A stretch of 64,000 nucleotides of DNA, from NCBI RefSeq assembly GCF_003018115.1, contig NZ_CP027457.1. One strand, written 5' to 3'. The notes under the pieces were generated by a model, which did no database searches, was not told where the DNA came from, and saw only the letters and a list, made by a program, of their open reading frames with translations. Both the position numbers and the translations under genes were made by a program. Source of the stretch: Escherichia coli. GTDB lineage: Bacteria; Pseudomonadota; Gammaproteobacteria; Enterobacterales; Enterobacteriaceae. This document shows positions 10,576 through 43,878 of this stretch, piece after piece (position 1 is the stretch's first letter; each line of letters starts with the position of its first letter).

Positions 10576-10611
10576 ATAAAAAAGCCCCCGGAAGGTGATC
10601 TTCCGGGGGCT
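10576..10611 (-). terminator. his operon attenuator (leader terminator hairpin plus U-run)
   Basis: Inverted repeat agcccccggaag/cttccgggggct followed on the minus strand by a T-run, between hisL and hisG. Confidence 0.85.
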
Positions 10612-10674
10612 TTCTCATGCGTTCATGCACCACTGGAAGATCTGAATGTCTTCCAGCACACATCGCCTGAAAGA

Positions 10675-10725
10675 CTAGTCAGGATGATGGTGATGATGGT
10701 GGTGTTTAAATTGAACGCGTGTCAT
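10675..10725 (-). CDS. hisL: his operon leader peptide (MTRVQFKHHHHHHHPD)
   Basis: Minus-strand 16-codon ORF with seven consecutive His codons directly upstream of the attenuator. Confidence 0.93.
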   Translation of the reverse strand: MTRVQFKHHHHHHHPD

Positions 10726-13393: not shown

Positions 13394-13659
13394 AGAAAAA
13401 TTATTATGACAAGCCTCTCATTCTCTTGTCATTTCCCCCCCATTTAGGCACAATGCGCCGCTGTCAAAAAATGACTAAAAACCGACGTTTCATCAGCGTC
13501 GGTTATTTTTTGCTTCAAACCAATCATTCATACCAAGAGGCCGGGCTTCGTACCGGATAGATATTTACTAAAAATCGACAGTTGTTGTCGCTGAGGAATC
13601 CAAAAAAATGGGGCAATTTTTTGCTTACGCGACGGTTATCACCGTAAAGGAGAATGACC

Positions 13660-15018
13660 ATGTCGCATAACGTTACTCCAAACACCTCTCGCGTGGAATT
13701 GCGTAAAACGCTTACGTTAGTTCCGGTTGTAATGATGGGTCTTGCCTATATGCAGCCGATGACGCTGTTTGATACTTTTGGTATCGTTTCAGGCCTCACG
13801 GATGGTCATGTGCCGACAGCCTATGCGTTCGCATTGATTGCGATCCTGTTTACGGCTCTGAGCTACGGGAAGCTGGTTCGCCGCTATCCTTCTGCTGGCT
13901 CTGCATACACTTACGCCCAGAAATCCATTAGCCCGACTGTCGGCTTTATGGTGGGTTGGTCTTCTCTGCTCGACTATCTGTTCGCGCCGATGATCAACAT
14001 TCTGCTGGCGAAAATCTATTTTGAAGCTCTGGTGCCTTCCATCCCATCGTGGATGTTTGTGGTGGCGCTGGTGGCCTTTATGACCGCCTTTAACCTGCGT
14101 AGTCTGAAATCCGTAGCGAACTTCAACACTGTAATCGTCGTGTTGCAGGTAGTGCTGATCGCGGTGATTCTGGGCATGGTTGTTTATGGCGTATTTGAAG
14201 GTGAAGGCGCTGGTACGCTGGCGAGCACTCGTCCGTTCTGGTCTGGCGATGCGCATGTTATCCCGATGATTACCGGGGCGACAATCCTGTGCTTCTCCTT
14301 TACCGGCTTTGACGGCATCAGCAACCTGTCGGAAGAAACCAAAGATGCAGAGCGCGTTATCCCGCGTGCGATTTTCCTGACCGCGCTGATTGGCGGCATG
14401 ATCTTCATCTTTGCAACTTACTTCCTGCAGCTGTACTTCCCGGATATCTCTCGCTTTAAAGATCCGGATGCGTCACAGCCTGAAATCATGCTGTATGTTG
14501 CGGGTAAAGCGTTCCAGGTTGGCGCGCTGATCTTCTCCACCATTACCGTACTGGCGTCTGGTATGGCGGCGCACGCAGGCGTAGCGCGTCTGATGTACGT
14601 AATGGGTCGTGACGGCGTATTCCCGAAAAGCTTCTTCGGTTATGTACACCCGAAATGGCGTACTCCGGCGATGAACATCATCCTGGTTGGCGCGATTGCC
14701 CTGCTGGCAATCAACTTCGACCTGGTAATGGCTACAGCGCTGATTAACTTTGGTGCGTTGGTGGCGTTCACCTTCGTTAACCTGTCGGTCATCTCGCAGT
14801 TCTGGATCCGTGAGAAGCGTAATAAGACGCTGAAAGATCACTTCCAGTATCTGTTCCTGCCGATGTGTGGTGCGCTGACTGTTGGTGCGCTGTGGGTTAA
14901 CCTGGAAGAAAGCTCAATGGTTCTGGGTCTGATCTGGGCTGCTATCGGTCTGATTTACCTGGCTTGCGTCACCAAGAGCTTCCGTAACCCGGTTCCGCAG
15001 TACGAAGACGTAGCATAA
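13660..15018 (+). CDS. plaP: Putrescine importer (APC-family amino acid/polyamine permease)
   Basis: ORF 13654..15018; start at [14 protein letters not shown]..., about 452 aa, multi-TM permease; AAGGAG RBS upstream. Confidence 0.88.
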
Positions 15019-15036: not shown

Positions 15037-15074
15037 AACCGGAGTCGAATGAACATTTGGCTCCGGTTTTTTTA
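15037..15074 (+). terminator. Intrinsic terminator downstream of plaP
   Basis: Hairpin aaccggagtcgaatgaacatttggctccggtt followed by a T-run. Confidence 0.75.
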
Positions 15075-15196: not shown

Positions 15197-16255
15197 ATGT
15201 TTTCAATGATATTAAGCGGGCTAATTTGTGGTGCTCTGCTGGGATTTGTCATGCAGCGTGGGCGTTTTTGCCTGACTGGTGGTTTTCGCGATATGTATAT
15301 CGCGAAAAATAATCGCATGTTTTACGCCTTGCTGATTGCAATTTCGATACAAAGCGTGGGGGTTTTTGCGTTAATTCAGGCAGGCCTACTGACTTACGAA
15401 GCCGGGGCGTTCCCGTGGCTTGGTACTGTTATAGGTGGGTATATCTTCGGGCTGGGAATTGTTCTGGCGGGTGGATGTGCCACCGGGACCTGGTATCGCG
15501 CGGGTGAGGGATTGATCGGCAGTTGGATCGCGCTTTTCACTTATATGGTGATGAGTGCGGTGATGCGTTCTCCACACGCCAGTGGTTTAAATCAAACCTT
15601 GCAGCACTACAGTACTGAACATAACTCTATTGCTGAGACTTTTAATTTGTCTGTGTGGCCGTTGGTTGCCGTATTGCTGGTGATAACGCTCTGGGTGGTG
15701 ATGAAAGAGTTGAAGAAGCCAAAACTCAAAGTCGCGACCTTACCGCCGCGCCGAACTGGGATCGCTCATATTCTGTTTGAAAAACGCTGGCATCCCTTTG
15801 TCACTGCTGTACTCATCGGTTTGATTGCGCTTTTAGCCTGGCCCCTGAGTGAAGCAACCGGACGTATGTTTGGGTTAGGCATCACTTCCCCAACGGCCAA
15901 TATTCTGCAATTTCTGGTCGCGGGTGACGTGAAATACATTAACTGGGGCGTTTTCCTGGTGTTAGGGATCTTCGTGGGGTCATTTATTGCAGCCAAAGCG
16001 AGCCGTGAGTTCCGCGTTCGCGCAGCTGATGCACAAACAACAGTACGTAGCGGGTTAGGTGGTGTACTGATGGGCTTCGGTGCCAGTATTGCAGGTGGTT
16101 GCTCTATCGGTAATGGACTGGTTATGACTGCAATGATGACCTGGCAGGGCTGGATTGGCCTTGTATTTATGATTCTCGGAGTCTGGACTGCGTCCTGGCT
16201 TGTGTATGTTCGACCGCAGCGTAAGGCGCGACTGGCAACTGCTGCGGCAAATTAA
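15197..16255 (+). CDS. yeeE: Thiosulfate transporter (YeeE/YedE family inner-membrane protein)
   Basis: 352-aa polytopic membrane ORF with conserved Cys motifs (GRFCLTGG..., GGCSIGNG...). Confidence 0.88.
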   Translation: MFSMILSGLICGALLGFVMQRGRFCLTGGFRDMYIAKNNRMFYALLIAISIQSVGVFALIQAGLLTYEAGAFPWLGTVIGGYIFGLGIVLAGGCATGTWYRAGEGLIGSWIALFTYMVMSAVMRSPHASGLNQTLQHYSTEHNSIAETFNLSVWPLVAVLLVITLWVVMKELKKPKLKVATLPPRRTGIAHILFEKRWHPFVTAVLIGLIALLAWPLSEATGRMFGLGITSPTANILQFLVAGDVKYINWGVFLVLGIFVGSFIAAKASREFRVRAADAQTTVRSGLGGVLMGFGASIAGGCSIGNGLVMTAMMTWQGWIGLVFMILGVWTASWLVYVRPQRKARLATAAAN

Positions 16256-16268
16256 GTAAGGTGTAAAG

Positions 16269-16496
16269 ATGGCGATTAAAAAGCTGGATGTGGTGACGCA
16301 GGTCTGTCCGTTTCCACTCATAGAAGCAAAAGCAGCACTGGCAGAAATGGCCAGCGGCGATGAGTTGGTAATTGAGTTTGATTGCACCCAGGCAACAGAA
16401 GCAATCCCACAATGGGCGGCAGAAGAAGGACATGCCATCACCGATTATCAGCAGATTGGCGATGCTGCGTGGAGCATCACCGTTCAAAAAGCCTGA
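16269..16496 (+). CDS. yeeD: TusA-like sulfurtransferase
   Basis: 75-aa ORF with the TusA CPxP motif (VCPFPLIEAK), directly downstream of yeeE. Confidence 0.9.
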   Translation: MAIKKLDVVTQVCPFPLIEAKAALAEMASGDELVIEFDCTQATEAIPQWAAEEGHAITDYQQIGDAAWSITVQKA

Positions 16497-16504
16497 CCCA
16501 ACAT

Positions 16505-16538
16505 TGTCCTCCGCCGTATCAGCGGCGGAGGCTTCAAA
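16505..16538. terminator. Stem-loop between convergent yeeD and sbcB
   Basis: Inverted repeat cctccgccg/cggcggagg; flanking T-runs are weak. Confidence 0.45.
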
Positions 16539-17966
16539 CTAGACGATCTCTTCCGCGTACTGCCAAAGCGCTTTTAACAGCGCCACTTTTTCTTTATCGT
16601 CGGCATACTGCTGCGCCAGCATCTGAATCTCTTCTGCATAGCCTTGTAAAAACTCGGGTGTGAATACCTGGCGGCGGTGCTCCAGCCAACGTTGCTGCTC
16701 GGCATAATCCAGCGTCCCTGGGAAGTTGCGTGCCCGATAATTGAACAACAGCTTTTCAATCCGTTTATCAACAAAAGTGATATCCAGTGCCGGTAAATTA
16801 CGCGGCTCGGTTTCCAGCACAATTTTCATTGCTGCACGATCGGCGTCACTGAAAAAGCCGTTATAAAGCTGTGTATCCACGTTATCTGAAGGCGTAAACG
16901 GTTCGGCTTCCGCGAATATCGCCACCACTTTTTCGCGCACTTGCGGATTTTCACGCAGAATTTTCAGGTTATCGAGGCAATGCTGACGATTAATTCCCAG
17001 TCGGTCGGCATCTTCCGGGCGTAGCGTATTCGCCTGGGCCAGCACCGGACATTTATTGATATGCACCAGCTTAACCGGAACGGCGGCGTTATCGCCAAGA
17101 TCGGTTTTTGCGGTATATAAACGCTCGCGTAATGTGTCGCTATCCAGTTCCAGTAATGGCGAAATGTCTCCTGCCAAATCCACCATAATTACGGCATTGC
17201 GATTTTCAGGATGCCACGCCAGCGGTGCCACCCAGCTGGTATTGCCGCGCCATGCCCCAAACATTCCGGAAACGTGCACCAGGGGTTTCATCTGCGGAAC
17301 ATCAATCAACGCCATCAGTTTGTGTTTATTACGATGGGTAAAGAGATATTCAAACAGACGTGGCTGACGCGTTTTTACCAGTTTCGCCATCGCAATAGTG
17401 GCGTACACATCAGCCATCGCATCGTGGGCGTTGCTATGTTCAATACCATTCGCTTTGGTTAAATGCTCAAGGCGAAAGCTCGGTAGACCGTCATCATTTT
17501 CAGGCCAGTTTATTCCTTCCGGGCGCAGGGCATAACAGGCACGCATAACATCCAGTAAATCCCAGCGCGAGTTATCATGCTGCCAGCTCCAGGCGTAAGG
17601 ATCGTAGAAATTACGATAAAAAATGTTGCGTGTGACTTCGTCGTCGAAACGCACATTGTTGTAGCCCAGAATACAGGTCTTCGGTACGGTAAAAAGCGAG
17701 TGAATACGGGCGGCAAACGCGGCTTCGTTTTCTCCTTTCGCCCGTGCTTCCTGCGGGGTAATACCGGTAATTAATACGGCTCCAGGCTGGGGTAAATAGT
17801 CATCCGCAGGCTTGCAGTAAAAGACTTCGGGTTCGCCGATGACATTGAATTCGCTATCGGTGCGAATGGCTGCGAACTGTGCAGGGCGATCTAACGCGGG
17901 GTGCGTGCCAAAGGTTTCGTAATCGTGAAACAAAAAGGTAGATTGTTGCTTACCGTCATTCATCAT
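16539..17966 (-). CDS. sbcB: Exodeoxyribonuclease I
   Basis: ORF 16539..18038; start at MMNDGKQQSTFLFHDYETFGTHPALDRPAQFAA... (475 aa). Confidence 0.93.
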   Translation of the reverse strand: MMNDGKQQSTFLFHDYETFGTHPALDRPAQFAAIRTDSEFNVIGEPEVFYCKPADDYLPQPGAVLITGITPQEARAKGENEAAFAARIHSLFTVPKTCILGYNNVRFDDEVTRNIFYRNFYDPYAWSWQHDNSRWDLLDVMRACYALRPEGINWPENDDGLPSFRLEHLTKANGIEHSNAHDAMADVYATIAMAKLVKTRQPRLFEYLFTHRNKHKLMALIDVPQMKPLVHVSGMFGAWRGNTSWVAPLAWHPENRNAVIMVDLAGDISPLLELDSDTLRERLYTAKTDLGDNAAVPVKLVHINKCPVLAQANTLRPEDADRLGINRQHCLDNLKILRENPQVREKVVAIFAEAEPFTPSDNVDTQLYNGFFSDADRAAMKIVLETEPRNLPALDITFVDKRIEKLLFNYRARNFPGTLDYAEQQRWLEHRRQVFTPEFLQGYAEEIQMLAQQYADDKEKVALLKALWQYAEEIV

Positions 17967-21190: not shown

Positions 21191-21361
21191 TTCCTGAACT
21201 TCAGAATCATCTTGCTGCTGCTTCGATTCAGCAAGGATAAAGGGTATGATAGTGAAAAGGGATAAAAGCATTGTCATCTGCGGCAGCTATGAGTAATGTT
21301 GGCCCTAACGAATAGCGGTTGCTTAAACGAATCCGACTCTCACATTATCAGGGGTATAAAA

Positions 21362-21691
21362 ATGGAAACTACCAAGCCTTCATTCCAGGACGTACTGGAA
21401 TTTGTTCGTCTGTTCCGTCGTAAGAACAAACTGCAACGTGAAATTCAGGACGTTGAGAAAAAGATCCGTGACAACCAGAAGCGCGTCCTGTTGCTGGACA
21501 ACCTGAGTGATTACATCAAGCCGGGGATGAGCGTTGAAGCAATCCAGGGCATCATCGCTAGCATGAAAGGTGACTATGAAGATCGCGTTGACGATTACAT
21601 CATCAAAAATGCCGAGCTCTCCAAAGAACGCCGCGATATCTCCAAAAAGCTGAAAGCTATGGGCGAAATGAAAAACGGCGAAGCGAAGTAA
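21362..21691 (+). CDS. yeeX: UPF0265/DUF496 family protein
   Basis: ORF 21296..21691; start at [18 protein letters not shown]... (109 aa). Confidence 0.88.
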
Positions 21692-21702
21692 TTCCTGTTT
21701 TA

Positions 21703-21732
21703 TTCAATGAGGGTTGCCCGGCAACCCTCATT
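21703..21732 (+). terminator. Stem-loop downstream of yeeX
   Basis: Inverted repeat gagggttgcccggcaaccctc; T-run is imperfect. Confidence 0.5.
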
Positions 21733-21791
21733 GCTCATTGATTCTTTTCTGTGTATCACAGTCATCATTCCCATCTGATAACCTATCGAAA

Positions 21792-21968
21792 TTAGCGACA
21801 GACATCTTCTGTATGAAGCAAGGCAAAAAGTTCTGCAACTCTATTGTTATTAACCGCACTGGTTACTAACACGTTGTGCGATCCAGCTTCCCGTAACCAA
21901 ACTTTCACCAAAGATATTTCTTCCATGCTGGCTAAATCTGCTTTGGTGACTACTCCAATGATCGGACG
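21792..21968 (-). pseudogene. Remnant of a EutP/PduV-family small GTPase gene (C-terminal about 58 codons only)
   Basis: Minus-strand frame RPIIGVVTKADLASMEEISLVKVWLREAGSHNVLVTSAVNNNRVAELFALLHTEDVCR*; resembles the C-terminus of EutP (RQIAVISKTDM...). No N-terminal P-loop region is present. Confidence 0.4.
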
Positions 21969-22149
21969 TTAACACGAGGAAGTCTGGCTATTCCACAATG
22001 CCATCTTCTTTCGTAATGGATTGAGAATGCTGGATTTTTAATTATATTACGCGCAGTATTAATCGTGTAAATGTTTTGCGGTCAGCAACGGTGGGGGATC
22101 CATTGTTCTGTTCAATGAATACCATCATACAATTGAATCAGGAGTCGGT

Positions 22150-22695
22150 ATGATGATTTTGGTGACGGGGGGCGCACGGAGCGGGAAGAGTCGCCACGCA
22201 GAGGCGCTTATTGGAGACTCTTCACAGGTTCTGTATATCGCCACCTCGCAAATCCTTGATGATGAGATGGCTGCACGGATAGAACATCATCGGCAAGGCC
22301 GCCCGGCGCACTGGCGCACGGTGGAGCGCTGGCAACATCTTGATGAATTAATTCATGCAGACATTAACCCGCATGAAGCTGTGTTGCTGGAATGCGTTAC
22401 CACAATGGTGACTAATCTGTTGTTTGATTATGGCGGAGATAAAGACCCTGATGAATGGGATTATCAGGCGATGGAACAGGCGATTAATGCTGAGATTCAG
22501 TCGTTGATTGCTGCCTGCCAACGTTGCCCCGCAAAGGTTGTATTAGTGACTAACGAAGTGGGAATGGGGATTGTGCCGGAGAGTCGTCTGGCACGTCATT
22601 TTCGTGATATTGCCGGGCGGGTAAATCAGCAGCTGGCCGCTGCGGCGAATGAAGTGTGGCTGGTGGTTTCGGGTATTGGAGTAAAAATCAAATGA
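22150..22695 (+). CDS. cobU: Adenosylcobinamide kinase / adenosylcobinamide-phosphate guanylyltransferase
   Basis: 181-aa ORF with P-loop GGARSGKS. Confidence 0.93.
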
Positions 22696-23435
22696 GTAAA
22701 TTATTTTGGGCGATGCTCTCTTTTATTACGCGTCTGCCTGTGCCGCGTCGCTGGTCCCAGGGACTGGATTTCGAGCATTATTCTCGCGGTATTATTACTT
22801 TTCCTTTAATTGGATTATTGCTTGGCGCGATTAGCGGGCTGGTTTTCATGGTGCTGCAGGCATGGTGTGGCGTACCACTGGCGGCACTGTTTAGCGTGCT
22901 TGTGCTGGCGCTGATGACCGGGGGATTCCACCTGGACGGCCTCGCCGATACCTGTGATGGCGTATTTTCTGCACGTAGCCGCGATCGCATGTTGGAAATC
23001 ATGCGTGATAGCCGTTTAGGCACCCACGGCGGTCTGGCATTGATTTTTGTTGTACTGGCAAAGATTCTGGTGTTAAGCGAGTTGGCTCTGCGTGGCGAAC
23101 CGATCCTTGCATCGCTGGCGGCAGCATGTGCGGTCAGCCGCGGGACTGCCGCATTATTGATGTATCGTCATCGTTATGCCCGGGAAGAAGGGCTTGGCAA
23201 TGTATTCATTGGCAAAATTGATGGGCGACAAACCTGCGTCACACTCGGCTTGGCCGCTATTTTTGCTGCCGTATTATTGCCGGGTATGCATGGTGTGGCT
23301 GCTATGGTGGTGACGATGGTGGCGATTTTCATCCTCGGTCAGCTTCTCAAACGTACGCTGGGCGGGCAAACCGGCGATACGCTGGGAGCTGCTATAGAGC
23401 TTGGTGAACTGGTCTTCCTGCTGGCACTGCTATAA
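22692..23435 (+). CDS. cobS: Adenosylcobinamide-GDP ribazoletransferase (cobalamin synthase)
   Basis: ORF 22656..23435; start at [18 protein letters not shown]... (247 aa); ATGA overlap with the cobU stop. Confidence 0.92.
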
Positions 23436-23446
23436 AGAGACGTGAC

Positions 23447-24526
23447 ATGCAAACACTTGCCGATTTACTGAATACGATCCCTGCTATCGATCCTGCCGCT
23501 ATGTCGCGTGCACAACGGCATATTGACGGGTTACTCAAACCTGTTGGTAGCCTTGGAAGGCTGGAGGCGCTTGCCATACAACTGGCAGGAATGCCGGGGT
23601 TGAATGGCATACCGCATGTGGGCAAAAAAGCGGTACTGGTTATGTGTGCCGATCACGGCGTCTGGGAGGAAGGGGTCGCTATTTCCCCAAAAGAAGTGAC
23701 AGCCATTCAGGCTGAAAATATGACCCGCGGAACAACCGGCGTGTGTGTGCTGGCAGCACAAGCGGGCGCTAACGTCCACGTAATTGATGTTGGTATTGAT
23801 AGTGCTGAGCCTATCCCCGGGCTTATCAACATGCGTGTCGCACGAGGTAGCGGCAATATTGCTTCAGCTCCGGCAATGAGTCGCCGTCAGGCTGAAAAGT
23901 TGCTTTTGGACGTCATATGTTATACGCGGGAGCTGGCAAAAAATGGTGTCACGCTGTTTTGTGTAGGTGAACTGGGGATGGCAAACACGACACCGGCAGC
24001 GGCAATAGTCAGCACAATCACTGGCCGGGATCCTGAAGAAGTGGTTGGGATTGGCGCAAACCTGCCAACAGATAAACTGGCTAATAAAATTAATGTTGTG
24101 CGCCGGGCGATTACGTTGAATCAACCAAATCCGCAGGATGGCGTTGATGTTCTGGCAAAAGTGGGTGGATTTGATTTGGTCGGAATGGCTGGCGTGATGT
24201 TAGGCGCTGCTTCCTGCGGTTTACCCGTGTTGCTGGATGGATTTCTTTCTTATGCTGCTGCGCTCGCAGCCTGCCAGATGTCTCCTGCAATCAAACCGTA
24301 TCTCATTCCTTCTCACCTGTCGGCAGAAAAAGGGGCGCGTATAGCGCTGTCGCATTTGGGGCTGGAGCCTTATCTCGATATGGAGATGCGTTTAGGTGAG
24401 GGGAGTGGCGCAGCTCTGGCGATGCCCATCATCGAAGCTGCCTGTGCGATATATAACAACATGGGCGAACTTGCTGCCAGTAATATTGTTCTACCGGGGA
24501 ATACGACTTCTGATTTGAACAGTTAA
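23447..24526 (+). CDS. cobT: Nicotinate-nucleotide--dimethylbenzimidazole phosphoribosyltransferase
   Basis: 359-aa [35 protein letters not shown]... Confidence 0.93.
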
Positions 24527-24590
24527 AAACGAAAAGTCTGATAAAAGCTATACTTAACGGATAGCTTTCGCGACTTAGGAAAGGGACATG

Positions 24591-25523
24591 ATGCGTCGTG
24601 TAAATATTCTTTGCTCATTTGCTCTGCTTTTTGCCAGCCATACTAGCCTGGCGGTAACTTATCCATTACCTCCAGAGGGTAGCCGTTTAGTGGGGCAGTC
24701 GTTTACTGTAACTGTTCCTGATCACAATACCCAGCCGCTGGAGACTTTTGCCGCACAATACGGGCAAGGGTTAAGTAACATGCTGGAAGCGAACCCGGGC
24801 GCTGATGTTTTCTTGCCGAAGTCTGGCTCGCAACTCACCATTCCGCAGCAACTGATTTTGCCCGCCACTGTTCGTAAAGGGATTGTGGTTAACGTCGCTG
24901 AGATGCGTCTTTATTACTACCCACCAGACAGTAATACTGTGGAAGTCTTTCCTATTGGTATCGGCCAGGCTGGGCGAGAAACCCCGCGTAACTGGGTGAC
25001 TACCGTTGAACGTAAACAAGAAGCTCCAACCTGGACGCCAACGCCGAACACTCGGCGCGAATATGCGAAACGAGGGGAGAGTTTGCCCGCATTTGTTCCT
25101 GCGGGGCCCGATAATCCCATGGGGCTGTACGCGATTTATATTGGCAGGTTGTATGCCATCCACGGTACCAATGCCAATTTTGGTATTGGGCTCCGGGTAA
25201 GTCAGGGCTGTATTCGTCTGCGCAATGACGATATCAAATATCTGTTTGATAATGTTCCTGTTGGGACGCGTGTGCAAATTATCGACCAGCCAGTAAAATA
25301 CACCACTGAACCAGATGGCTCGAACTGGCTGGAAGTTCATGAGCCGCTGTCGCGCAATCGTGCAGAATATGAGTCTGACCGAAAAGTGCCATTGCCGGTA
25401 ACCCCATCTTTGCGGGCGTTTATCAACGGGCAAGAAGTTGATGTGAATCGCGCAAATGCTGCGTTGCAACGTCGATCGGGAATGCCTGTGCAAATTAGTT
25501 CTGGTTCAAGACAGATGTTTTAA
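24591..25523 (+). CDS. ldtA: L,D-transpeptidase (YkuD domain; links Braun lipoprotein to peptidoglycan)
   Basis: ORF 24588..25523; signal peptide, YkuD catalytic region with HGT...SQGCIRL motif; the K-12 erfK homologue. Confidence 0.9.
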
Positions 25524-25548
25524 GAGCGTTGGTAATTAGAAAGCAAAA

Positions 25549-25568
25549 AGCCTGCTAGAAAGCAGGCT
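25549..25568. terminator. Bidirectional terminator between ldtA and tRNA-Asn
   Basis: Hairpin agcctgctagaaagcaggct flanked by A-run and T-run. Confidence 0.7.
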
Positions 25569-25578
25569 TTTTTGAATT

Positions 25579-25654
25579 TGGCTCCTCTGACTGGACTCGA
25601 ACCAGTGACATACGGATTAACAGTCCGCCGTTCTACCGACTGAACTACAGAGGA
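25579..25654 (-). tRNA. asnV: tRNA-Asn (GUU)
   Basis: 76-nt reverse complement of the canonical E. coli tRNA-Asn, ending CCA, anticodon loop cuGUUaa. Confidence 0.95.
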
Positions 25655-25979
25655 ATCGTGTGAACGGGGCGCATATTAATGGCAGTGCATGGTGATGTCA
25701 AAGGGTGAAATGCATTTTTTTGTTTGTTTGCTGTCAATTTCAACAAAGTGATGAGATTTCAATCTTATTGGTAATGAACCATCGTGGTGCATACCCTCCT
25801 TTTATAGGGCAGGGGAACGCGACTGCTGGTGAAAAGAGCCAATGACGAATCTATCATAATCTCTTATTTGACAGTTGGTTAGCTTGTACATCAACGCCAA
25901 AATAAAACTGGCAAGCATCTTGCAGTCTGGTTGTAAGTAATGGCGGCACTTGGGCCGATTCTCAAAAACCGGAGGCAAC

Positions 25980-26897
25980 ATGAACTTCAGACGCCTGAAA
26001 TACTTCGTAAAAATTGTAGATATTGGTAGCCTGACCCAGGCTGCTGAAGTATTGCATATCGCACAACCAGCGCTCAGCCAGCAGGTTGCCACACTGGAAG
26101 GTGAGTTAAATCAACAACTTTTGATTCGCACAAAACGAGGCGTTACGCCAACAGACGCCGGAAAAATTCTCTATACCCATGCGCGGGCCATTTTACGTCA
26201 GTGTGAGCAGGCCCAACTGGCGGTGCATAACGTTGGTCAGGCATTATCGGGGCAAGTCTCGATTGGCTTTGCGCCAGGAACCGCTGCGTCATCCATCACC
26301 ATGCCCTTATTACAGGCGGTTCGCGCTGAATTTCCGGAGGTCGTTATCTATCTTCATGAAAATAGCGGTGCAGTGCTTAACGAAAAACTGATAAATCACC
26401 AACTCGATATGGCGGTGATTTATGAGCATTCCCCTGTGGCTGGTGTATCCAGTCAGGCTTTACTGAAAGAAGATCTTTTTCTGGTAGGAACTCAAGATTG
26501 CCCGGGGCAAAGCGTTGATGTTAATGCTATTGCGCAAATGAACCTCTTTCTCCCCAGTGATTACAGTGCTATTAGACTTCGTGTTGATGAGGCTTTTTCC
26601 CTACGGCGACTCACGGCAAAAGTCATTGGTGAAATTGAGTCTATTGCCACGCTTACCGCAGCGATTGCGAGCGGCATGGGCGTTGCAGTATTACCCGAAT
26701 CGGCCGCGCGTTCGTTATGTGGCGCAGTAAACGGGTGGATGTCACGCATTACCACACCTTCCATGAGTCTCTCTTTGTCACTAAATTTACCCGCCAGAGC
26801 GAACTTATCACCACAGGCGCAAGCAGTGAAAGAGTTGTTAATGTCAGTGATGAGTTCTCCAGTGATGGAAAAAAGGCAGTGGCAATTGGTGAGCTAA
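25980..26897 (+). CDS. nac: Nitrogen assimilation control protein (LysR family)
   Basis: ORF 25950..26897; start at MNFRRLKYFVKIVDIGSLTQAAEVLHIAQPALSQQV... (305 aa). Confidence 0.93.
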   Translation: MNFRRLKYFVKIVDIGSLTQAAEVLHIAQPALSQQVATLEGELNQQLLIRTKRGVTPTDAGKILYTHARAILRQCEQAQLAVHNVGQALSGQVSIGFAPGTAASSITMPLLQAVRAEFPEVVIYLHENSGAVLNEKLINHQLDMAVIYEHSPVAGVSSQALLKEDLFLVGTQDCPGQSVDVNAIAQMNLFLPSDYSAIRLRVDEAFSLRRLTAKVIGEIESIATLTAAIASGMGVAVLPESAARSLCGAVNGWMSRITTPSMSLSLSLNLPARANLSPQAQAVKELLMSVMSSPVMEKRQWQLVS

Positions 26898-26998
26898 GCG
26901 TTATATCGGGATGGAATAAGATGCGGGTTTTTATTATTTGTTATGCCGGGCATTAGACTTTAACAATAACGGGAAATCTGAACTGCCCGGAGTTTACC

Positions 26999-27949
26999 GT
27001 GAATTTCCAACAACTAAAGATAATCCGCGAGGCTGCACGTCAGGATTACAACCTGACAGAGGTTGCGAATATGCTTTTTACCTCACAGTCAGGCGTCAGC
27101 CGTCATATTCGGGAACTGGAGGATGAACTTGGCATCGAAATATTTGTTCGACGAGGTAAGCGACTGCTGGGCATGACTGAACCGGGCAAAGCATTACTGG
27201 TCATTGCAGAACGTATTCTGAATGAAGCCAGTAATGTTCGTCGGCTTGCAGACCTGTTTACCAACGATACGTCTGGCGTTCTCACTATTGCAACGACGCA
27301 TACTCAGGCACGTTATAGCTTGCCAGAGGTCATTAAAGCTTTTCGCGAACTTTTCCCGGAGGTTCGGCTCGAGCTAATCCAGGGGACGCCACAGGAAATT
27401 GCGACGTTGTTGCAAAATGGCGAAGCTGATATTGGTATCGCCAGCGAGCGTTTGAGTAATGACCCGCAGCTCGTCGCCTTCCCGTGGTTTCGTTGGCACC
27501 ATAGTTTGCTTGTTCCACTCGATCATCCCTTGACGCAAATTACACCGTTGACGCTGGAATCAATAGCGAAGTGGCCGTTAATTACTTACCGACAGGGGAT
27601 TACGGGGCGCTCACGTATTGATGACGCATTTGTCCGCAAAGGTTTGCTGGCAGATATTGTATTAAGTGCGCAGGATTCTGATGTCATTAAAACCTATGTT
27701 GCTCTTGGGCTGGGGATTGGATTAGTTGCCGAACAATCCAGCGGCGAACAAGAGGAAGAGAATTTAATCCGTCTGGATACGCGGCATCTTTTCGATGCCA
27801 ATACTGTATGGTTGGGACTGAAGCGAGGGCAACTTCAACGTAACTATGTCTGGCGCTTTCTGGAACTTTGTAATGCAGGACTGTCAGTTGAGGATATCAA
27901 GCGCAAGGTGATGGAGAACAGTGAAGAGGAAATTGATTATCAGATATAG
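26999..27949 (+). CDS. cbl: CysB-like LysR-family regulator of sulfonate utilisation
   Basis: 316-aa ORF MNFQQLKIIREAARQDYNLTEVANMLFTSQSGVSRHI... Confidence 0.93.
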   Translation: MNFQQLKIIREAARQDYNLTEVANMLFTSQSGVSRHIRELEDELGIEIFVRRGKRLLGMTEPGKALLVIAERILNEASNVRRLADLFTNDTSGVLTIATTHTQARYSLPEVIKAFRELFPEVRLELIQGTPQEIATLLQNGEADIGIASERLSNDPQLVAFPWFRWHHSLLVPLDHPLTQITPLTLESIAKWPLITYRQGITGRSRIDDAFVRKGLLADIVLSAQDSDVIKTYVALGLGIGLVAEQSSGEQEEENLIRLDTRHLFDANTVWLGLKRGQLQRNYVWRFLELCNAGLSVEDIKRKVMENSEEEIDYQI

Positions 27950-27955
27950 CAAAAA

Positions 27956-27976
27956 GCCCGCTATAAAAGCGGGCTT
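27956..27976. terminator. Bidirectional terminator between cbl and tRNA-Asn
   Basis: Hairpin gcccgctataaaagcgggc flanked by A-run and T-run. Confidence 0.7.
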
Positions 27977-27986
27977 TTCAGAAATT

Positions 27987-28062
27987 TGGCTCCTCTGACT
28001 GGACTCGAACCAGTGACATACGGATTAACAGTCCGCCGTTCTACCGACTGAACTACAGAGGA
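27987..28062 (-). tRNA. asnU: tRNA-Asn (GUU)
   Basis: 76-nt sequence identical to the other tRNA-Asn copies. Confidence 0.95.
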
Positions 28063-28222
28063 ATCGCTGTTGAGGCACATCTTAACGGCGAAAAATCTTT
28101 TGTCAAACCCGATTTTTAAATTTCCCAACTGTTTGCCGTTTCTATCAACAGTTTGTTGCATTTGCAGACAATTTGTTGGCGAAAATCTTTGCAGCTTTGC
28201 TGATTCTCCCTCATTATTTGAA

Positions 28223-29710
28223 ATGTGGTTTCACTTTCTGCAATTAAGGTCGGCTTTGAATATCTCCTCTGCTTTACGCCAGGTTGTTCACGGCACTCGC
28301 TGGCACGCTAAACGCAAGAGCTACAAAGTGTTGTTCTGGCGCGAGATAACCCCGCTTGCTGTTCCTATCTTCATGGAGAATGCCTGTGTCCTGTTGATGG
28401 GGGTTCTGAGCACTTTTCTGGTCAGCTGGCTGGGAAAAGATGCGATGGCCGGCGTGGGATTGGCGGACAGCTTCAATATGGTCATTATGGCTTTTTTTGC
28501 TGCTATCGATCTTGGTACTACTGTCGTTGTGGCATTTAGTCTCGGTAAGCGGGATCGACGACGAGCGAGGGTGGCGACGCGGCAGTCATTGGTGATCATG
28601 ACGTTGTTTGCCGTACTGTTGGCAACGCTTATTCATCATTTTGGCGAACAAATTATTGATTTCGTCGCGGGTGATGCCACGACAGAAGTTAAAGCACTGG
28701 CGTTGACTTATCTGGAGCTGACGGTACTCAGTTATCCAGCAGCTGCCATCACTCTTATTGGTAGCGGGGCACTTCGTGGTGCAGGGAATACGAAAATACC
28801 GCTATTGATTAACGGTAGCCTGAATATTCTTAATATTATTATTAGCGGCATATTGATTTACGGCCTTTTCTCCTGGCCGGGACTGGGATTTGTCGGGGCA
28901 GGGCTGGGTTTAACCATTTCTCGTTATATTGGCGCAGTTGCAATTTTGTGGGTGCTGGCGATTGGTTTTAATCCTGCGCTAAGGATTTCGTTAAAGAGCT
29001 ATTTTAAACCGCTGAATTTTAGCATTATCTGGGAAGTCATGGGGATTGGTATTCCCGCGAGTGTCGAATCAGTGTTATTTACCAGTGGTCGGTTATTAAC
29101 CCAAATGTTCGTTGCCGGGATGGGGACCAGTGTTATTGCCGGAAATTTTATCGCGTTTTCAATTGCGGCTCTTATCAACTTACCCGGAAGTGCGCTCGGC
29201 TCTGCTTCTACGATCATTACAGGCCGAAGGTTGGGGGTAGGGCAGATAGCGCAAGCAGAGATTCAGTTGCGGCATGTGTTCTGGCTGTCCACTCTTGGAT
29301 TAACGGCCATCGCCTGGCTAACGGCTCCCTTTGCCGGGCTTATGGCATCGTTTTACACCCAGGATCCACAAGTTAAACATGTCGTTGTGATTCTGATTTG
29401 GCTAAATGCTTTATTTATGCCTATTTGGTCCGCCTCATGGGTGCTACCCGCTGGATTTAAAGGTGCTCGTGATGCCCGTTACGCCATGTGGGTTTCGATG
29501 TTGAGCATGTGGGGTTGTCGGGTTGTCGTCGGTTATGTGCTGGGAATCATGCTTGGCTGGGGTGTGGTTGGTGTCTGGATGGGAATGTTTGCCGACTGGG
29601 CTGTGCGGGCCGTGCTGTTTTACTGGCGAATGGTTACTGGACGTTGGCTATGGAAATACCCTCGATCCGAGCCGCAAAAGTGTGAAAAAAAGCCAGTTGT
29701 GTCGGAATAA
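28223..29710 (+). CDS. yeeO: MATE-family multidrug/flavin efflux transporter
   Basis: ORF 28070..29710; start placed at MWFHFLQL... (ATG 28223, 495 aa) because the longer frame begins only 8 nt from the divergent tRNA. Confidence 0.82.
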   Translation: MWFHFLQLRSALNISSALRQVVHGTRWHAKRKSYKVLFWREITPLAVPIFMENACVLLMGVLSTFLVSWLGKDAMAGVGLADSFNMVIMAFFAAIDLGTTVVVAFSLGKRDRRRARVATRQSLVIMTLFAVLLATLIHHFGEQIIDFVAGDATTEVKALALTYLELTVLSYPAAAITLIGSGALRGAGNTKIPLLINGSLNILNIIISGILIYGLFSWPGLGFVGAGLGLTISRYIGAVAILWVLAIGFNPALRISLKSYFKPLNFSIIWEVMGIGIPASVESVLFTSGRLLTQMFVAGMGTSVIAGNFIAFSIAALINLPGSALGSASTIITGRRLGVGQIAQAEIQLRHVFWLSTLGLTAIAWLTAPFAGLMASFYTQDPQVKHVVVILIWLNALFMPIWSASWVLPAGFKGARDARYAMWVSMLSMWGCRVVVGYVLGIMLGWGVVGVWMGMFADWAVRAVLFYWRMVTGRWLWKYPRSEPQKCEKKPVVSE

Positions 29711-29810
29711 ACGACAAAATGCAGATTATTTCAGCAAACGATTTCAAATTTAAAAAACAGGCTTTGACATTGTGGGTGGGCATCGCTAATATTCGCCTCG
29801 TTCTCACGAT

Positions 29811-29886
29811 TCCTCTGTAGTTCAGTCGGTAGAACGGCGGACTGTTAATCCGTATGTCACTGGTTCGAGTCCAGTCAGAGGAGCCA
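29811..29886 (+). tRNA. asnW: tRNA-Asn (GUU)
   Basis: 76-nt canonical tRNA-Asn on the plus strand, inverted relative to the other three copies. Confidence 0.95.
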
Positions 29887-29948
29887 AATTTTAGTTTTGA
29901 GACATCTCTATGAGTCTCAAGGCAGTTAAAAAATAAAAATTATTTTTA

Positions 29949-29984
29949 CCCGGCCACTTTGTAAAAAAGTGGCCGGGTTTTTTG
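29949..29984 (+). terminator. Intrinsic terminator downstream of plus-strand tRNA-Asn
   Basis: Hairpin cccggccactttgtaaaaaagtggccggg followed by a T-run. Confidence 0.75.
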
Positions 29985-30335
29985 ATTTCTGTGTTTCGTG
30001 CGCTTAATCGAGTCTCACGCTTCAGTGAGCAAATTGCCCCTCCCCAACAGACATCACGATTCACAAGGTCAAAAATTCTGTTCCATGAAGTACCGTACAA
30101 AGATAAAGAGAAAAATGCCTTATGCGGGATGTCGCTGTCGCGTCTTTATCGGGAAACTATACGTAATTACCACTTGCCTTCTGTAATCAGAAAAAGAAGA
30201 CCTGGAATTTTAATAAATATTATTTCTCTGGGGGGATTTTTATAATCAATATGACGAGTTGAAAATTATATTCTTTATAAGAATTATATGAGGTTAAAGA
30301 AATCTGCCGTAAAGACAGATTTCTTTAAAAGATAA

Positions 30336-31052
30336 TTAGAGATTTGCGACGTTATGATAAACTTTTTGTACATCGTCGTCATCTTCAAGGGCATCAACAA
30401 GCCCTTCAAAGATTTCTAAATCTTCTGGGGAAAGCTCAACTTCAGATTGAGCAATCATTTCTAATTCTGTTGTTGAGAACTCAGTGATTCCAGCTGCTTT
30501 TAGAGCCGCGATTCCTTTATGAAGGTCAGTAGGTTCGGTATAAATAACAATGTTACCTTCTTCTTCAGTCACATCACGAACATCAACTTCAGCTTCAAGT
30601 AAAATTTCAAAAATATGGTCAGGGTCTGATCCTTTAAATACAATCACACCAGTATTGTCAAACATATAGCTGACAGAACCTGCCGCTCCGATATTGCCGC
30701 CTTTTTTATTGAAAATTGTGCGAACGTTAGCAATCGTACGGTTAACATTTGAAGTCAATGTCTCGGCGATAATCATTGAGCCATTAGGACCAAAGCCTTC
30801 ATAACGGCCCTGCACGAATGTTTCATCTCCGCCGCCTTTGGCTTTATCAATTGCTTTATCAATAACGTGCTTTGGAACTTGTGCCTGCTTTGCACGTTCA
30901 ATAACGAATTTTAAAGATGTGTTTAATTCTGGATCGGGTTCACCTTGTTTAGCGGCAGCATAGATTTCTACACCGAATTTTGCATAAATTTTAGACGTTG
31001 CACCGTCTTTAGCCGTTTTTTTAGCAACAATATTGGCCCATTTACGTCCCAC
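30336..31052 (-). CDS. yeeN: YebC/PmpR-family transcriptional regulator
   Basis: 238-aa [34 protein letters not shown]... Confidence 0.9.
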
Positions 31053-31394
31053 TGGAATGATCTCCTCGAAAATTTATTTACATTACTGGTAAATCGTTAA
31101 CATGTGTTAATTCGGCATATTATATCATAACAGGAAAAATCTCGTCTATTAGAAATAAAAATATTCTAAAGCCATAATCTTATATTTAATTTTATAAAAA
31201 CTTATATTGTTGGCGGGATTTTTTATAATTGTGTTTTGAAAGCATACTTGCTTTTAATATGTGGAAATCATTAAGACGATAATAAAACTCGTATCCGCCC
31301 AAGGAAGCAAACAGCCCGCGTTTATTGCGGGCTATTTGCCAGATGTCTTACTTAATCCTTCACATCTATTTTTGATAAGAAGGTTCAGAACTTA

Positions 31395-32849
31395 TTATCG
31401 GAACGGCGGCTCATTAAAGGTTCGTAATTTACGTGAATGCAGTCGGTCGCCTTCTGCGCGCAGCAAATCGATCGCCCGAATGCCAATTTGTAGGTGTTCG
31501 GAAATAGCGCCTTCATAAAAACGGTTAGCCTGACCGGGAAGTTTAATCTCGCCATGCAACGGTTTATCTGAAACACACAGTAGTGTCCCGTATGGCACGC
31601 GGAAACGATATCCTTGCGCGGCAATGGTTGCACTTTCCATATCAATTGCTACGGCCCGGCTTAAGTTAAAACGAAGTGCAGAAGCTGAGTAACGTAATTC
31701 CCAGTTCCTGTCATCTGTGGTTACCACAGTACCAGTACGTAGCCGCTGTTTGACTTCCTCACCGGGCCTGCCGCTCACCAGCTTGGTGGCGTCATAAAGC
31801 GCACGTTGCACTTCAGCAATGCTCGGAATAGGAATATCGGGCGGCAGAACCGCATCAAGAACGTGGTCATCGCGTAAATAAGCGTGTGCAAGTACATAAT
31901 CGCCAATGGCCTGACTTTCACGTAATCCGCCACAGTGACCAATCATCAACCAGACATCCGGGCGTAGCACTGCCAGATGATCGCAGATGGTTTTAGCATT
32001 TGACGGTCCCACGCCAATATTCACCAGAGTAATACCCTGACCATCGGCGGTAATTAAATGCCATGCTGGCATCTGGTGTTTTTTCCATGCAAGGTCGGAA
32101 ATGGCTTCTTCTGGCGCTTCGGTTTCGGCGGTGATCCAGTTCCCGCCAGCACAAGAAAGGGCAATGTAGGGACTATCAGGATCGAGGATCTGGCTGCATC
32201 CCCAACGAACGAATTCATCCACATAACGTGTATAGTTGGTAAACAAGACGAACGGCTGAAAATGTTCAACTGGCGTACCGGTATAATGGCGCAACCGTGC
32301 GAGGGAAAAATCGACGCGGCGCGCATCAAAATGCGATAGCGGGGAGAATTCAGTTGGATGATAAATGCCGTCTGCAGTTTCATCGCCAATTTGCGCCAGT
32401 TCTGTTGTCGGGAAATAGCGAGTTAACCCAGCGCTCATTGAGCGATCAAGTGTCAATTCAGAGCCATCGATGACATAAGGATAAGGGATTTCATGCTGCG
32501 AGGGTTGCACCGAGATATGCGCACCATAATCCTGATACAGCAACGTAAGTTGTTCATTGAGATACGAACGAAAGAGAGTAGGGCGAGTAATCGTGGTGGT
32601 GTAGCTGCCTGCGTGAGTAAAACGACCAAATGCGCGCGTTTTAGGGGGATTGGTTGTGCTACCATCCCAGGTTACGGTCAGTGATGGATAGACAAAAAGA
32701 CCTTGTTTGCGGGCGTTTTCATCAGGTAATTCGCCACTTGTAATATATTTGCCAATGGCGTTGCGTAAAGCGACTACAGATTGCTCATACAGCGCGTCGA
32801 GTTTATCCAGTGCCTGAGCTGGGGTCAGACCGGAGCCCTTATTATTCAT
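31395..32849 (-). CDS. amn: AMP nucleosidase
   Basis: ORF 31395..33005; start at MNNKGSGLTPAQALDKLDALYEQSV... (ATG 32849, 484 aa). Confidence 0.92.
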   Translation of the reverse strand: MNNKGSGLTPAQALDKLDALYEQSVVALRNAIGKYITSGELPDENARKQGLFVYPSLTVTWDGSTTNPPKTRAFGRFTHAGSYTTTITRPTLFRSYLNEQLTLLYQDYGAHISVQPSQHEIPYPYVIDGSELTLDRSMSAGLTRYFPTTELAQIGDETADGIYHPTEFSPLSHFDARRVDFSLARLRHYTGTPVEHFQPFVLFTNYTRYVDEFVRWGCSQILDPDSPYIALSCAGGNWITAETEAPEEAISDLAWKKHQMPAWHLITADGQGITLVNIGVGPSNAKTICDHLAVLRPDVWLMIGHCGGLRESQAIGDYVLAHAYLRDDHVLDAVLPPDIPIPSIAEVQRALYDATKLVSGRPGEEVKQRLRTGTVVTTDDRNWELRYSASALRFNLSRAVAIDMESATIAAQGYRFRVPYGTLLCVSDKPLHGEIKLPGQANRFYEGAISEHLQIGIRAIDLLRAEGDRLHSRKLRTFNEPPFR

Positions 32850-32950
32850 GTGTGTCTCCTGTTCCATACAATTACCGCACATCCGATAGTATGTCACAGA
32901 AATGTGAAACAAAAGTGTAAGGCGAAGATCGGATGATCTTCGCCAGGCTA

Positions 32951-34267
32951 TCAAGCGCGTTGACTGTCTTTCATCAACAAAGCGGTCATTGCGGAAATCA
33001 GGCATCCAGCCAGCAAATAAATGGCGACGCTATGCCAGTTCCCGGCAAAGTAAGTGATGAGTGCAGCGGCAATAAAAGGTGTAAATCCACCGCCAACCAC
33101 ACTGGCAACCTGATAACCGACTCCAGCGCCACTATAGCGATAACTGGCACCAAACATTTCGGTAAACATCGGTTGTTGCACACACACCACCATGTCATGC
33201 GCAATGTTTGCCAGCATTATGGAGAAGAAAACTATCCAGAAAATAGATTGTGCTTCAAGCGCCATAAAGAAAGGAAATGCGCTCAACGTTCCGATTAACG
33301 CACCTGTGATATAAACCCTGCGGCGACCAAAACGATCGGCAAGCCAGGCAAAACAGGGAATTGTCAGGCAGCTTAATCCACCTACCAGCAAACCAATATT
33401 AAGGAAAAGTTCGCGCGGTAACCCCATATTCTGGGTTGAATAATTAAGTGCAAAGGCGGTAACGATGTACATCGTCAGCAACTCGCACAGCCGTAGCGCA
33501 ATAATCTTCAGGAAAGCACCAGGATGTCGTAACAGCGCTTCGATAACCGGGATGCGTTTTTTCGCGGCAGCTTGATTATGTTGCTGTTGTTCAAATTCCG
33601 CGGACTCTTCCATGCCATTGCGCACCCACAATGCTCCCAGTACCAGTACGATGCTAAACAGGAAAGGAATGCGCCAGCCCCAGCTTAAAAACTGTTCGTC
33701 AGTCGTCATTATACTGATCAATGAAACCAGTCCGGTTGAAAGCAGTAAACCTACTCCGTAGCCAACTTGTACACCGCTACTGTAAAAGGCTTTTTTATTT
33801 TCCGGCGCACTTTCAACGGAAAGCAACGCCGCGCCTCCCCATTCGCCGCCGACGGCAAATCCCTGAATGGCACGCAGTGTCACCAGCAAAATAGGTGCCC
33901 ACCACCCAATGGTCGAGAATGAAGGAAGAATACCAATCAAGGCTGTCGCGATGCCCATCATCCAGACGGTCAGCATTAACATGCGCTTACGTCCCAGTCG
34001 GTCGCCAAAGTGACCGAAAATGACACCGCCGAGCGGACGGAAAAGGAATCCGACGCCAAAGGTGGCAAATGCGGCGAGCGTTCCCATAGCCGGGCTTACT
34101 TGCGGGAAAAACTCGCGATTAAAAACCAGTGCGGCGGTAATGCCATAGAGTAAAAAATCATACCAGTCGACGACGGCACCAGCGAAACTGCCTAACGCAG
34201 CTCGTCGGGCGCGACTTAACGAAAGCGTCCCTTCATCGGGACGAGTGGAGATGAGCGTGGAGTCCAT
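32951..34267 (-). CDS. shiA: Shikimate:H+ symporter (MFS)
   Basis: 438-aa 12-TM MFS ORF MDSTLISTRPDEGTLSLSRARRAALGSFAGA... Confidence 0.92.
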   Translation of the reverse strand: MDSTLISTRPDEGTLSLSRARRAALGSFAGAVVDWYDFLLYGITAALVFNREFFPQVSPAMGTLAAFATFGVGFLFRPLGGVIFGHFGDRLGRKRMLMLTVWMMGIATALIGILPSFSTIGWWAPILLVTLRAIQGFAVGGEWGGAALLSVESAPENKKAFYSSGVQVGYGVGLLLSTGLVSLISIMTTDEQFLSWGWRIPFLFSIVLVLGALWVRNGMEESAEFEQQQHNQAAAKKRIPVIEALLRHPGAFLKIIALRLCELLTMYIVTAFALNYSTQNMGLPRELFLNIGLLVGGLSCLTIPCFAWLADRFGRRRVYITGALIGTLSAFPFFMALEAQSIFWIVFFSIMLANIAHDMVVCVQQPMFTEMFGASYRYSGAGVGYQVASVVGGGFTPFIAAALITYFAGNWHSVAIYLLAGCLISAMTALLMKDSQRA

Positions 34268-34581
34268 AATGATCCTGTTTGTACTGTCTTTTTATAATTA
34301 GTATGGAAAAGGTAACTCACATTGCTGTCGATCTATAAACGAACCTTATGAGACTACCTCGACAGAGCGCATCTGCAAATGATTTTATGGCTGATGAGCA
34401 GCAACATGAAAAATTCGCTGGAAGATGAAAGCGCAGGAGTTGCTGGTGTTGTTTAAGGATTAAGCAGAGGCCCCACAGGTTCGAGATATGAAACATAAAA
34501 GTCCGCATATGCACAAAATTGCACCCTGATGATTCTGATAGACTGCATTGCATTATAACCAGTAGGGAGGCGAGGTTAGTT

Positions 34582-35634
34582 ATGTTTTTAGCATCATTGT
34601 TGAGACGTATTGTATTTAGTTACTACGATTATAAAGCTTATAATTTCAATATTGAAAAAACAGAGTTTGTTGTTATCCATATTCCCGATCAGATTGGCGA
34701 TGCTATGGCCATCTTTCCTGTTATTCGGGGGCTTGAATTGCATAAAATTAAGCATCTTTTAATTGTAACGTCGACAATTAATTTAGAAGTCTTTAATGCG
34801 CTCAAACTTGAACAGACTAAATTAACATTAGTCACAATGACTATGCAGGATCACGCAACATTAAAAGAAATAAAAGATTTAGCGAAGAACATAACACAGC
34901 AATACGGTACGCCGGATCTTTGTATAGAGGCGATGCGTAAAAAGAACCTGAAAACGATGTTATTTATCAGTCAGTTGAAAGCAAAAACGAATTTTCAGGT
35001 TGTTGGTTTAACCATGAAGTGCTATTCCCCTTTGTGTAAGAACGCGTCCCGGATGGATCAGAATCTCCGGGCTCCTGTACCCATGACATGGGCATTTATG
35101 ATGCGGGAGGCGGGTTTTCCAGCAGTCAGGCCAATATATGAATTGCCACTAAGTGAGGATGTACTCGATGAGGTGCGCGAGGAAATGCGATCGTTAGGAG
35201 CTTACATTGCGCTCAATTTAGAAGGTAGCTCGCAGGAACGTACATTTTCACTATCGATTGCAGAAAATCTAATAGAAAAAATTCAAAGTGAAACAGATAT
35301 ACCAATAGTGATCGTTCATGGACCAAAAGGGGAAGGTAAAGCCAGGGCATTAGTGGATTGTTATAATAATGTCTACCGTTTATCCTTATCACCCTCGATT
35401 AAACGTTCAGCAGCAATCATAAAAGATGCTTATATCGCAATAACTCCTGACACCTCAATATTACATATGGCAAGTGCCTATAATACCCCCGTTGTTGCAA
35501 TTTATGCTGATTACAAAACGCGATGGCCCGCAATGGCCGATGTTTCGGAGTCAGTCGTCGTTGGGCAAAAAATTGACAATATAAGTCTGGATGAATTCGC
35601 AAAGGCATTAAAAAGTGTTTTGGCGAGAATATGA
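34582..35634 (+). CDS. yeeL: Glycosyltransferase family 9 (heptosyltransferase-like) protein, apparently intact
   Basis: ORF 34519..35634; start placed at ATG 34582, which follows a GGGAGG RBS (about 350 aa). C-terminal GT9-type motif (ITPDTSILHMASAYNTPVVAIYADY). AT-rich codon usage. Confidence 0.75.
   Translation: MFLASLLRRIVFSYYDYKAYNFNIEKTEFVVIHIPDQIGDAMAIFPVIRGLELHKIKHLLIVTSTINLEVFNALKLEQTKLTLVTMTMQDHATLKEIKDLAKNITQQYGTPDLCIEAMRKKNLKTMLFISQLKAKTNFQVVGLTMKCYSPLCKNASRMDQNLRAPVPMTWAFMMREAGFPAVRPIYELPLSEDVLDEVREEMRSLGAYIALNLEGSSQERTFSLSIAENLIEKIQSETDIPIVIVHGPKGEGKARALVDCYNNVYRLSLSPSIKRSAAIIKDAYIAITPDTSILHMASAYNTPVVAIYADYKTRWPAMADVSESVVVGQKIDNISLDEFAKALKSVLARI

Positions 35635-35895: not shown

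Positions 35896-43878
<7,983 letters not shown>

Follow-up and report, generated by a model that had tools for sequence, protein, structure and literature searches.

In E. coli, growth on thiosulfate requires the yeeE-yeeD operon (now tsuA-tsuB), as shown by growth complementation, and thiosulfate uptake was shown in liposomes for the YeeE of Spirochaeta thermophila, in which the roles of three relay cysteines have been described, while YeeD decomposes thiosulfate on the cysteine of its CPxP motif (PMC11073785). Structures of the S. thermophila YeeE/YeeD system are available for comparison (6LEO, 8J4C, 8K1R). Regarding the ends of transcripts, Dar and Sorek (2018) described a class of precise 3′ ends located right after stable stem-loops devoid of a U-tail, which arise through the action of Rho and through trimming by PNPase and RNase II. 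Overlapping bidirectional termination sites, in which two opposite ends overlap across one hairpin, were catalogued by Ju et al. (2019); the class is described as unlike intrinsic terminators and, in general, as Rho-independent. Finally, REP elements between convergent genes are palindromes for which a role in two-way termination and RNA stability has been proposed (10.64898/2026.03.23.713779).

The locus presented here combines a thiosulfate-uptake pair with a palindrome placed between convergent genes, within a window (the whole stretch of DNA analysed, 64 kb of E. coli DNA) that lies in reverse orientation relative to K-12. The sequence-only reading had proposed that yeeE-yeeD converge with sbcB over a 42-bp spacer, and both the open reading frames and the sequence agree with its coordinates to the base. 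The features of the locus are the following:

15037 to 15068, plus strand: intrinsic terminator of plaP, a 14-pair stem followed by TTTTTATT, found by the terminator scan and in the sequence.
15197 to 16255, plus strand: tsuA (yeeE), thiosulfate transporter, 352 aa.
16269 to 16496, plus strand: tsuB (yeeD), TusA-like sulfurtransferase, 75 aa, with its TGA stop at 16494-16496.
16497 to 16538, unstranded: spacer of 42 bp, from the tsuB stop to the sbcB stop.
16508 to 16531, unstranded: shared hairpin, a 9-bp stem CCTCCGCCG/CGGCGGAGG with a 6-nt loop and no U-tract on either transcript.
16539 to 17966, minus strand: sbcB, exodeoxyribonuclease I, 475 aa, convergent with tsuB.

The plaP terminator is of the canonical type and separates plaP from the tsuAB transcription unit, whose upstream limit it sets. 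The tsuB start follows the tsuA stop on the same strand after a gap of 13 nt, and therefore tsuA and tsuB form one operon. The closest complete genomes are 99.4-99.8% identical to the window over the tsuAB region, and these genes are annotated by RefSeq in over 4000 genomes of E. coli. In the window, sbcB has TAG as its stop codon (minus strand, 16539-16541). This codon varies by allele, being TAA in K-12 and most of the sampled strains and TGA in the genomes devoid of tsuAB.

The protein assignments are supported by curated profiles. TsuA scores 711.9 bits against NCBIfam NF041049 (curated cut-off 645) and matches Pfam PF04143 (Sulf_transp) with E = 5e-119 over profile positions 1-310 of 310, whereas TsuB scores 163.2 bits against NF041048 (curated cut-off 147.5) and matches the TusA family PF01206. 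SbcB matches the Pfam exonuclease I domains and passes the NCBIfam cut-off for exodeoxyribonuclease I. In the phmmer alignment to 6LEO, the S. thermophila residues C22, C91 and C293 are matched by C25, C94 and C302 of the window YeeE. The CPxP motif of YeeD is C13-P-F-P16 and its second cysteine is C39, in agreement with the residues that PMC11073785 gives for the E. coli protein. Compared with TsuA-TsuB of E. coli K-12 (b2013-b2012), the window proteins are 97-99% identical, with the same cysteines, CPxP motif and operon layout and no substantive difference, the window representing an allelic variant. The idea of a sulfur-uptake pair, made of a YeeE with conserved cysteines and a TusA-like CPxP partner, is thus upheld by the profile cut-offs, by the presence of these residues and by the published function: by sequence, tsuA-tsuB of the window is the known two-gene thiosulfate-uptake operon. 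Thiosulfate would cross the membrane via TsuA, past the three cysteines, and TsuB would receive it on the CPxP cysteine before decomposing it.

The pairing of yeeE and yeeD is kept in 79 of 80 loci from other species, L068 being the exception. The YeeE and YeeD of many Paenibacillus and Bacillaceae species (loci L043-L082) are 65-73% identical to the E. coli proteins, which is unusually high between Proteobacteria and Firmicutes and suggests a horizontal transfer of the pair.

The spacer between tsuB and sbcB contains the GC-rich inverted repeat that had been claimed for it, in the form of a perfect repeat whose arms, CCTCCGCCG (16508-16516) and CGGCGGAGG (16523-16531), form eight G-C pairs out of nine around the loop TATCAG. 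Folding of 16497-16538 as RNA gave a stable structure on both strands, with -21.0 kcal/mol for the plus strand (z = -5.3) and -19.6 kcal/mol for the minus strand (z = -3.9), and none of the 200 dinucleotide shuffles of either strand folded as well. The 64-kb window contains a single occurrence of the palindrome pattern, against an expectation of 0.02, and each of 4202 E. coli genomes has it at one location only. An Rfam search retrieved nothing relevant for the hairpin at E ≤ 1.

The bases that follow the stem are CUUCAAAC in the tsuB direction and ACAAUGUU in the sbcB direction, that is, 2-3 U per 8 nt. Consequently, a canonical intrinsic terminator was considered and rejected: the stem-loop itself has the appropriate stability (about -20 kcal/mol), but the U-tract of about 7-8 nt is absent on both sides. 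A terminator scan requiring 5 T in 8 found the plaP terminator and did not report the shared hairpin. A REP/BIME repeat was likewise ruled out, considering the single copy per genome, the single match in the window and the blank REP column in the modified version of the Ju table.

Mapped 3′ ends are available for K-12, a different strain from that of the window, with an identical stem and a single base change in the loop. The two sequences align without gaps, and the K-12 coordinate equals 2100722 minus the window coordinate. The ends are located as follows:

16535 to 16537, plus strand: tsuAB mRNA 3′ ends (K-12 2084187, 2084186 and 2084185), 4-6 nt past the stem, from Term-seq and SEnd-seq.
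16504, minus strand: sbcB mRNA 3′ end (K-12 2084218), 4 nt past the stem (...GGAGGACAA), the right edge of SEnd-seq entry 172 in the modified table.

In the Term-seq data of Adams 2021 (PMC7815308, supplementary file 1), the dominant end on the tsuB strand is 2084186 in LB at OD 2.0 (window 16536) and 2084187 in M63 (window 16535), with none listed for LB at OD 0.4. The SEnd-seq data of Ju et al. (2019) were available as a table of the 2026 REP preprint (10.64898/2026.03.23.713779), modified from their Supplementary Table 4. This modified table lists, as entry 172, an overlapping bidirectional termination site spanning 2084185-2084218 (window 16504-16537; genes yeeE:sbcB:yeeD), described as convergent and in a gap region, with a 34-nt overlap, a 9-bp stem, a 6-nt loop, -19.6 kcal/mol, flanks of 3 A and 3 U and a blank REP column, and detected only in stationary phase. 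We interpret its edges as the end of the tsuB transcript (16537) and the end of the sbcB transcript (16504, K-12 plus strand). With this reading of the tabulated entry, the tsuB-strand ends of the two datasets lie 1-2 nt apart. The Term-seq lists of Adams 2021 contain no sbcB 3′ end, and further published 3′-end supplementary tables do not mention yeeE, yeeD or sbcB. Mapping therefore places the 3′ ends of both transcripts 4-6 nt beyond the stem, by Term-seq for the tsuB strand and, in the form tabulated, by SEnd-seq for both.

In K-12, then, one hairpin sets the steady-state 3′ ends of both mRNAs, as seen from Term-seq and from the modified SEnd-seq table. This bears out the proposal of a stem-loop common to the tsuAB and sbcB 3′ ends, with the refinement that it carries no U-tract and is not a classical intrinsic terminator. 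Both the observation and its interpretation are correct and were already known, as the tsuAB genes are characterised and the hairpin figures in two published 3′-end catalogues. What is added here is that the hairpin is not a classical terminator, that the structure is conserved across genera, that the published data on mechanism conflict at this locus and that E. coli alleles naturally swap the hairpin for canonical terminators.

Beyond the positions of the 3′ ends, the mechanism is what we infer from these and the following data. Rather than autonomous intrinsic termination, we favour, with some but not high confidence, a factor-dependent termination after which exonucleases shorten the transcript as far as a protective hairpin. 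As it has no U-tract, the hairpin would not free RNA polymerase alone; the polymerase would pause at the hairpin or pass it, entering the untranslated antisense of the opposite gene, where Rho would mainly stop it. The tail would then be cut back to the hairpin by 3′-to-5′ exonucleases, and the hairpin would shield both mRNAs and limit antisense transcription into the partner gene.

The involvement of Rho is suggested by one additional feature reported for K-12:

16378, plus strand: a site within tsuB (K-12 2084344, minus strand) listed in Adams 2021 (supplementary file 2) as a Rho termination region, at p = 1e-7 and with a Rho score of 5.69, for which 800 nt to either side were compared.

Around this position, 35 upstream and 12 downstream reads were counted without bicyclomycin and 140 and 273 with it, so that the downstream/upstream ratio increased 5.7-fold (Adams 2021, PMC7815308); given the 800-nt windows and a centre 118 nt upstream of the tsuB stop, this score is too coarse to assign the effect to the hairpin. 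As the score spans 800 nt, most of the sequence compared downstream is antisense to sbcB. The composition beyond the hairpin is C-rich over G in both directions, with a C/G of 1.9-2.0 in the first 100 nt of the tsuB-sense RNA and of 1.3-2.7 from 80 nt to about 420 nt in the sbcB-sense RNA. The locus presents the features of the class of Dar and Sorek, namely a precise end, a U-poor tail, a readthrough sensitive to bicyclomycin (at 800-nt resolution) and an excess of C over G downstream. It resembles their protective stem-loops in its stable stem without a U-rich tail, its end a few nt downstream and the C>G bias beyond, and differs from them in that a single palindrome serves two opposite transcripts.

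Several observations count against the favoured reading. An end 4-6 nt past the stem fits a weak intrinsic terminator too, the Rho score was measured during log phase in LB, a condition of weak tsuAB expression, and bicyclomycin also induces antisense transcripts, which could begin inside sbcB. Moreover, the general description of the bidirectional sites as Rho-independent by Ju et al. (2019) argues against Rho at this locus. The Rho region of Adams 2021 and the class to which entry 172 belongs show that the published datasets disagree here.

The conservation of the structure counts in favour of the protective hairpin. The order plaP-yeeE-yeeD-sbcB was found in more than 30 species of Enterobacteriaceae from about 12 genera, one genome per species being scanned. 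We folded the spacers of 31 other species with convergent yeeD and sbcB and a spacer shorter than 120 nt, each against 200 mononucleotide shuffles. A hairpin at the yeeD-sbcB position recurs in 28-29 of the 31, with 28 spacers beaten by only 0-2 of their 200 shuffles and one borderline case (L007) in which one base of the stem falls outside the spacer. The two genomes with no hairpin within the spacer are both Superficieibacter (L012 and L019), with spacers of 23 nt; in L012, a possible 7-bp stem GCAGGAG/CTCCTGC would extend into the coding end of sbcB. The stem sequences differ between species, including CCTCCGCCG, GCCCTCCCG, CCCTCCGCC, TTCCCTCTGCG, TCTCCCGCTAC, AAGCCTCGCAC and GCGCCCCGC. In a table anchored on CCTC/GAGG, 14 distinct perfect stems present 2-3 Watson-Crick pair types at eight positions, and both sides change at inner positions, the perfect (100%) pairing being partly by construction as each species is represented by its best perfect hairpin. 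Aligning the spacers across genera with MAFFT put the stems out of register, and RNAalifold returned a consensus fold of -0.39 kcal/mol with 5 weak pairs; the claim of conservation rests on the folding of each species against its shuffles and on the anchored table. Within E. coli, seven haplotypes (with identities between 89% and 100%) differ at six sites of the spacer, none of them among the 18 stem bases. Together, the fold test, the varied stems and the haplotype pattern suggest selection on the structure.

Within the anchored table (loci L003-L032), the CCTC/GAGG core is present in 12 of the 14 stems and CTC/GAG in all 14, with variable inner pairs, whereas Pseudocitrobacter, outside the table, does not have this core. 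The arms of the hairpin resemble anti-Shine-Dalgarno and Shine-Dalgarno sequences.

Among the other explanations, a bidirectional termination driven by collisions holds best and is possible, albeit rather unlikely. The hairpin would only pause the polymerases, and head-on collisions together with trailing polymerases would release them without Rho. The locus is itself entry 172 of the overlapping bidirectional sites, with two opposite ends across one hairpin, in the table as modified from Ju et al. (2019), and single-molecule work supports collisions at the ynaJ-uspE site (collision model of Wang et al.). These published experiments concern other loci, and the locus differs from the class, described as Rho-independent, in that the independent bicyclomycin data point to an effect of Rho at tsuB-sbcB. 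The genomic context also has a bearing on this explanation: in lineages without the convergence of yeeD and sbcB, an ordinary U-tract terminator often lies just behind yeeD (L023, L044, L049, L053 and L081), which suggests that the U-less design goes together with a tight convergent context. Nevertheless, collisions would require frequent transcription of both genes, whereas the sbcB 3′ end is missing from the Term-seq lists. To our knowledge, no strong expression of sbcB has been described, which also counts against them.

An autonomous, weak and bidirectional intrinsic terminator, in which the GC stem alone would release the polymerase despite its poor U-tract, appears improbable. The energy of the stem, about -20 kcal/mol, resembles that of true terminators, the 3′ ends are precise on both strands (for sbcB, according to the modified table), and Dar and Sorek (2018) considered possible intermediates combining inefficient intrinsic termination with Rho. 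Against this, only 2-3 U are found in the 8 nt past the stem in either direction, with no A-tract, and in the presence of bicyclomycin the downstream reads exceed the upstream ones (273 vs 140). The last alternative is that the palindrome arose by chance or belongs to a repeat family such as REP, and is without function at the locus. It has in its favour only that the hairpin is a short palindrome between convergent genes, where REPs are common, and it is effectively refuted by the folding (0/200 shuffles), the single copy, the blank REP column and the lack of an Rfam match, the hairpin at the same position in about 12 genera and the transcript ends that map to it; indeed, the hairpin shares with the REP elements of the preprint (10.64898/2026.03.23.713779) its position between convergent genes and a proposed two-way role, and differs from them as a single-copy sequence not flagged as REP in their table.

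The favoured reading of Rho-dependent termination and trimming can be extended to a more speculative idea, which we regard as a long shot. The U-less hairpin could be a factor-dependent two-way insulator selected for a tight convergent pair, with the CCUC/GAGG core in about 10 genera, and sulfur limitation with strong tsuAB transcription could modulate sbcB through antisense readthrough or collisions. If true, this would link the sulfur status to the processing of DNA ends by exonuclease I. At a more modest level, the value of the locus is that of a clean natural case in which a single palindrome ends two convergent mRNAs without a U-tract, and the conflict between the Rho score and the Rho-independent collision sites, together with the natural swaps of the hairpin, makes it a convenient test case.

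These swaps are found in the genomes devoid of tsuAB. About 1217 of 5423 complete E. coli genomes (~22%) have neither tsuAB nor the hairpin; their match to the region starts exactly at the sbcB stop codon, and no second match to the region was found elsewhere in these genomes. Considering the synteny in other genera, this state is probably a derived deletion. Two genomes with such alleles were examined in detail. In the first (L090, 2400-2530), plaP and sbcB converge directly over 73 bp, and the spacer of this one genome contains a canonical two-way terminator, AAAAAGCCGGAG...CTCCGGCTTTTTT. The second, U15A (L083, 5190-6030), is the sole case examined of a junction between the right end of IS200C and sbcB, which is present in 432 genomes; here, IS200C is inserted between that plaP terminator and sbcB, and its right-end hairpin CCTCCGGC/GCCGGAGG, flanked by A and T runs, adjoins the sbcB stop as part of a multi-copy element. 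The two genomes examined show that sbcB can take any nearby hairpin as its 3′ structure. The IS200C right-end hairpin (L083, 5970-5988), although unrelated, also begins with CCTCCG...CGGAGG.

Other features of the window were noted. PlaP (13654-15018) falls into two classes of identity to the E. coli protein among loci L003-L042: 96-97% in Leclercia sp., C. youngae, Citrobacter sp. Cu233, Kluyvera genomosp. 3, K. georgiana and Pseudocitrobacter, and about 86% in the others. This split is independent of the genus and hints at recombination or transfer of plaP. The sRNA STnc240 is located just upstream of plaP. Rfam and ARAGORN matches in the window (10576-10699, 13439-13513, 25579-45348, 55068-55157 and 63493-63579) correspond to the His operon leader, STnc240, four tRNA-Asn, one tRNA-Ser, rseX and DsrA. 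Finally, tmaR is directly followed by cobU-cobS-cobT, ldtA and a tRNA-Asn (~21296-25654) and, since tmaR adjoins cobU-cobS-cobT, the CP4-44 cryptic prophage that intervenes in K-12 is absent here.
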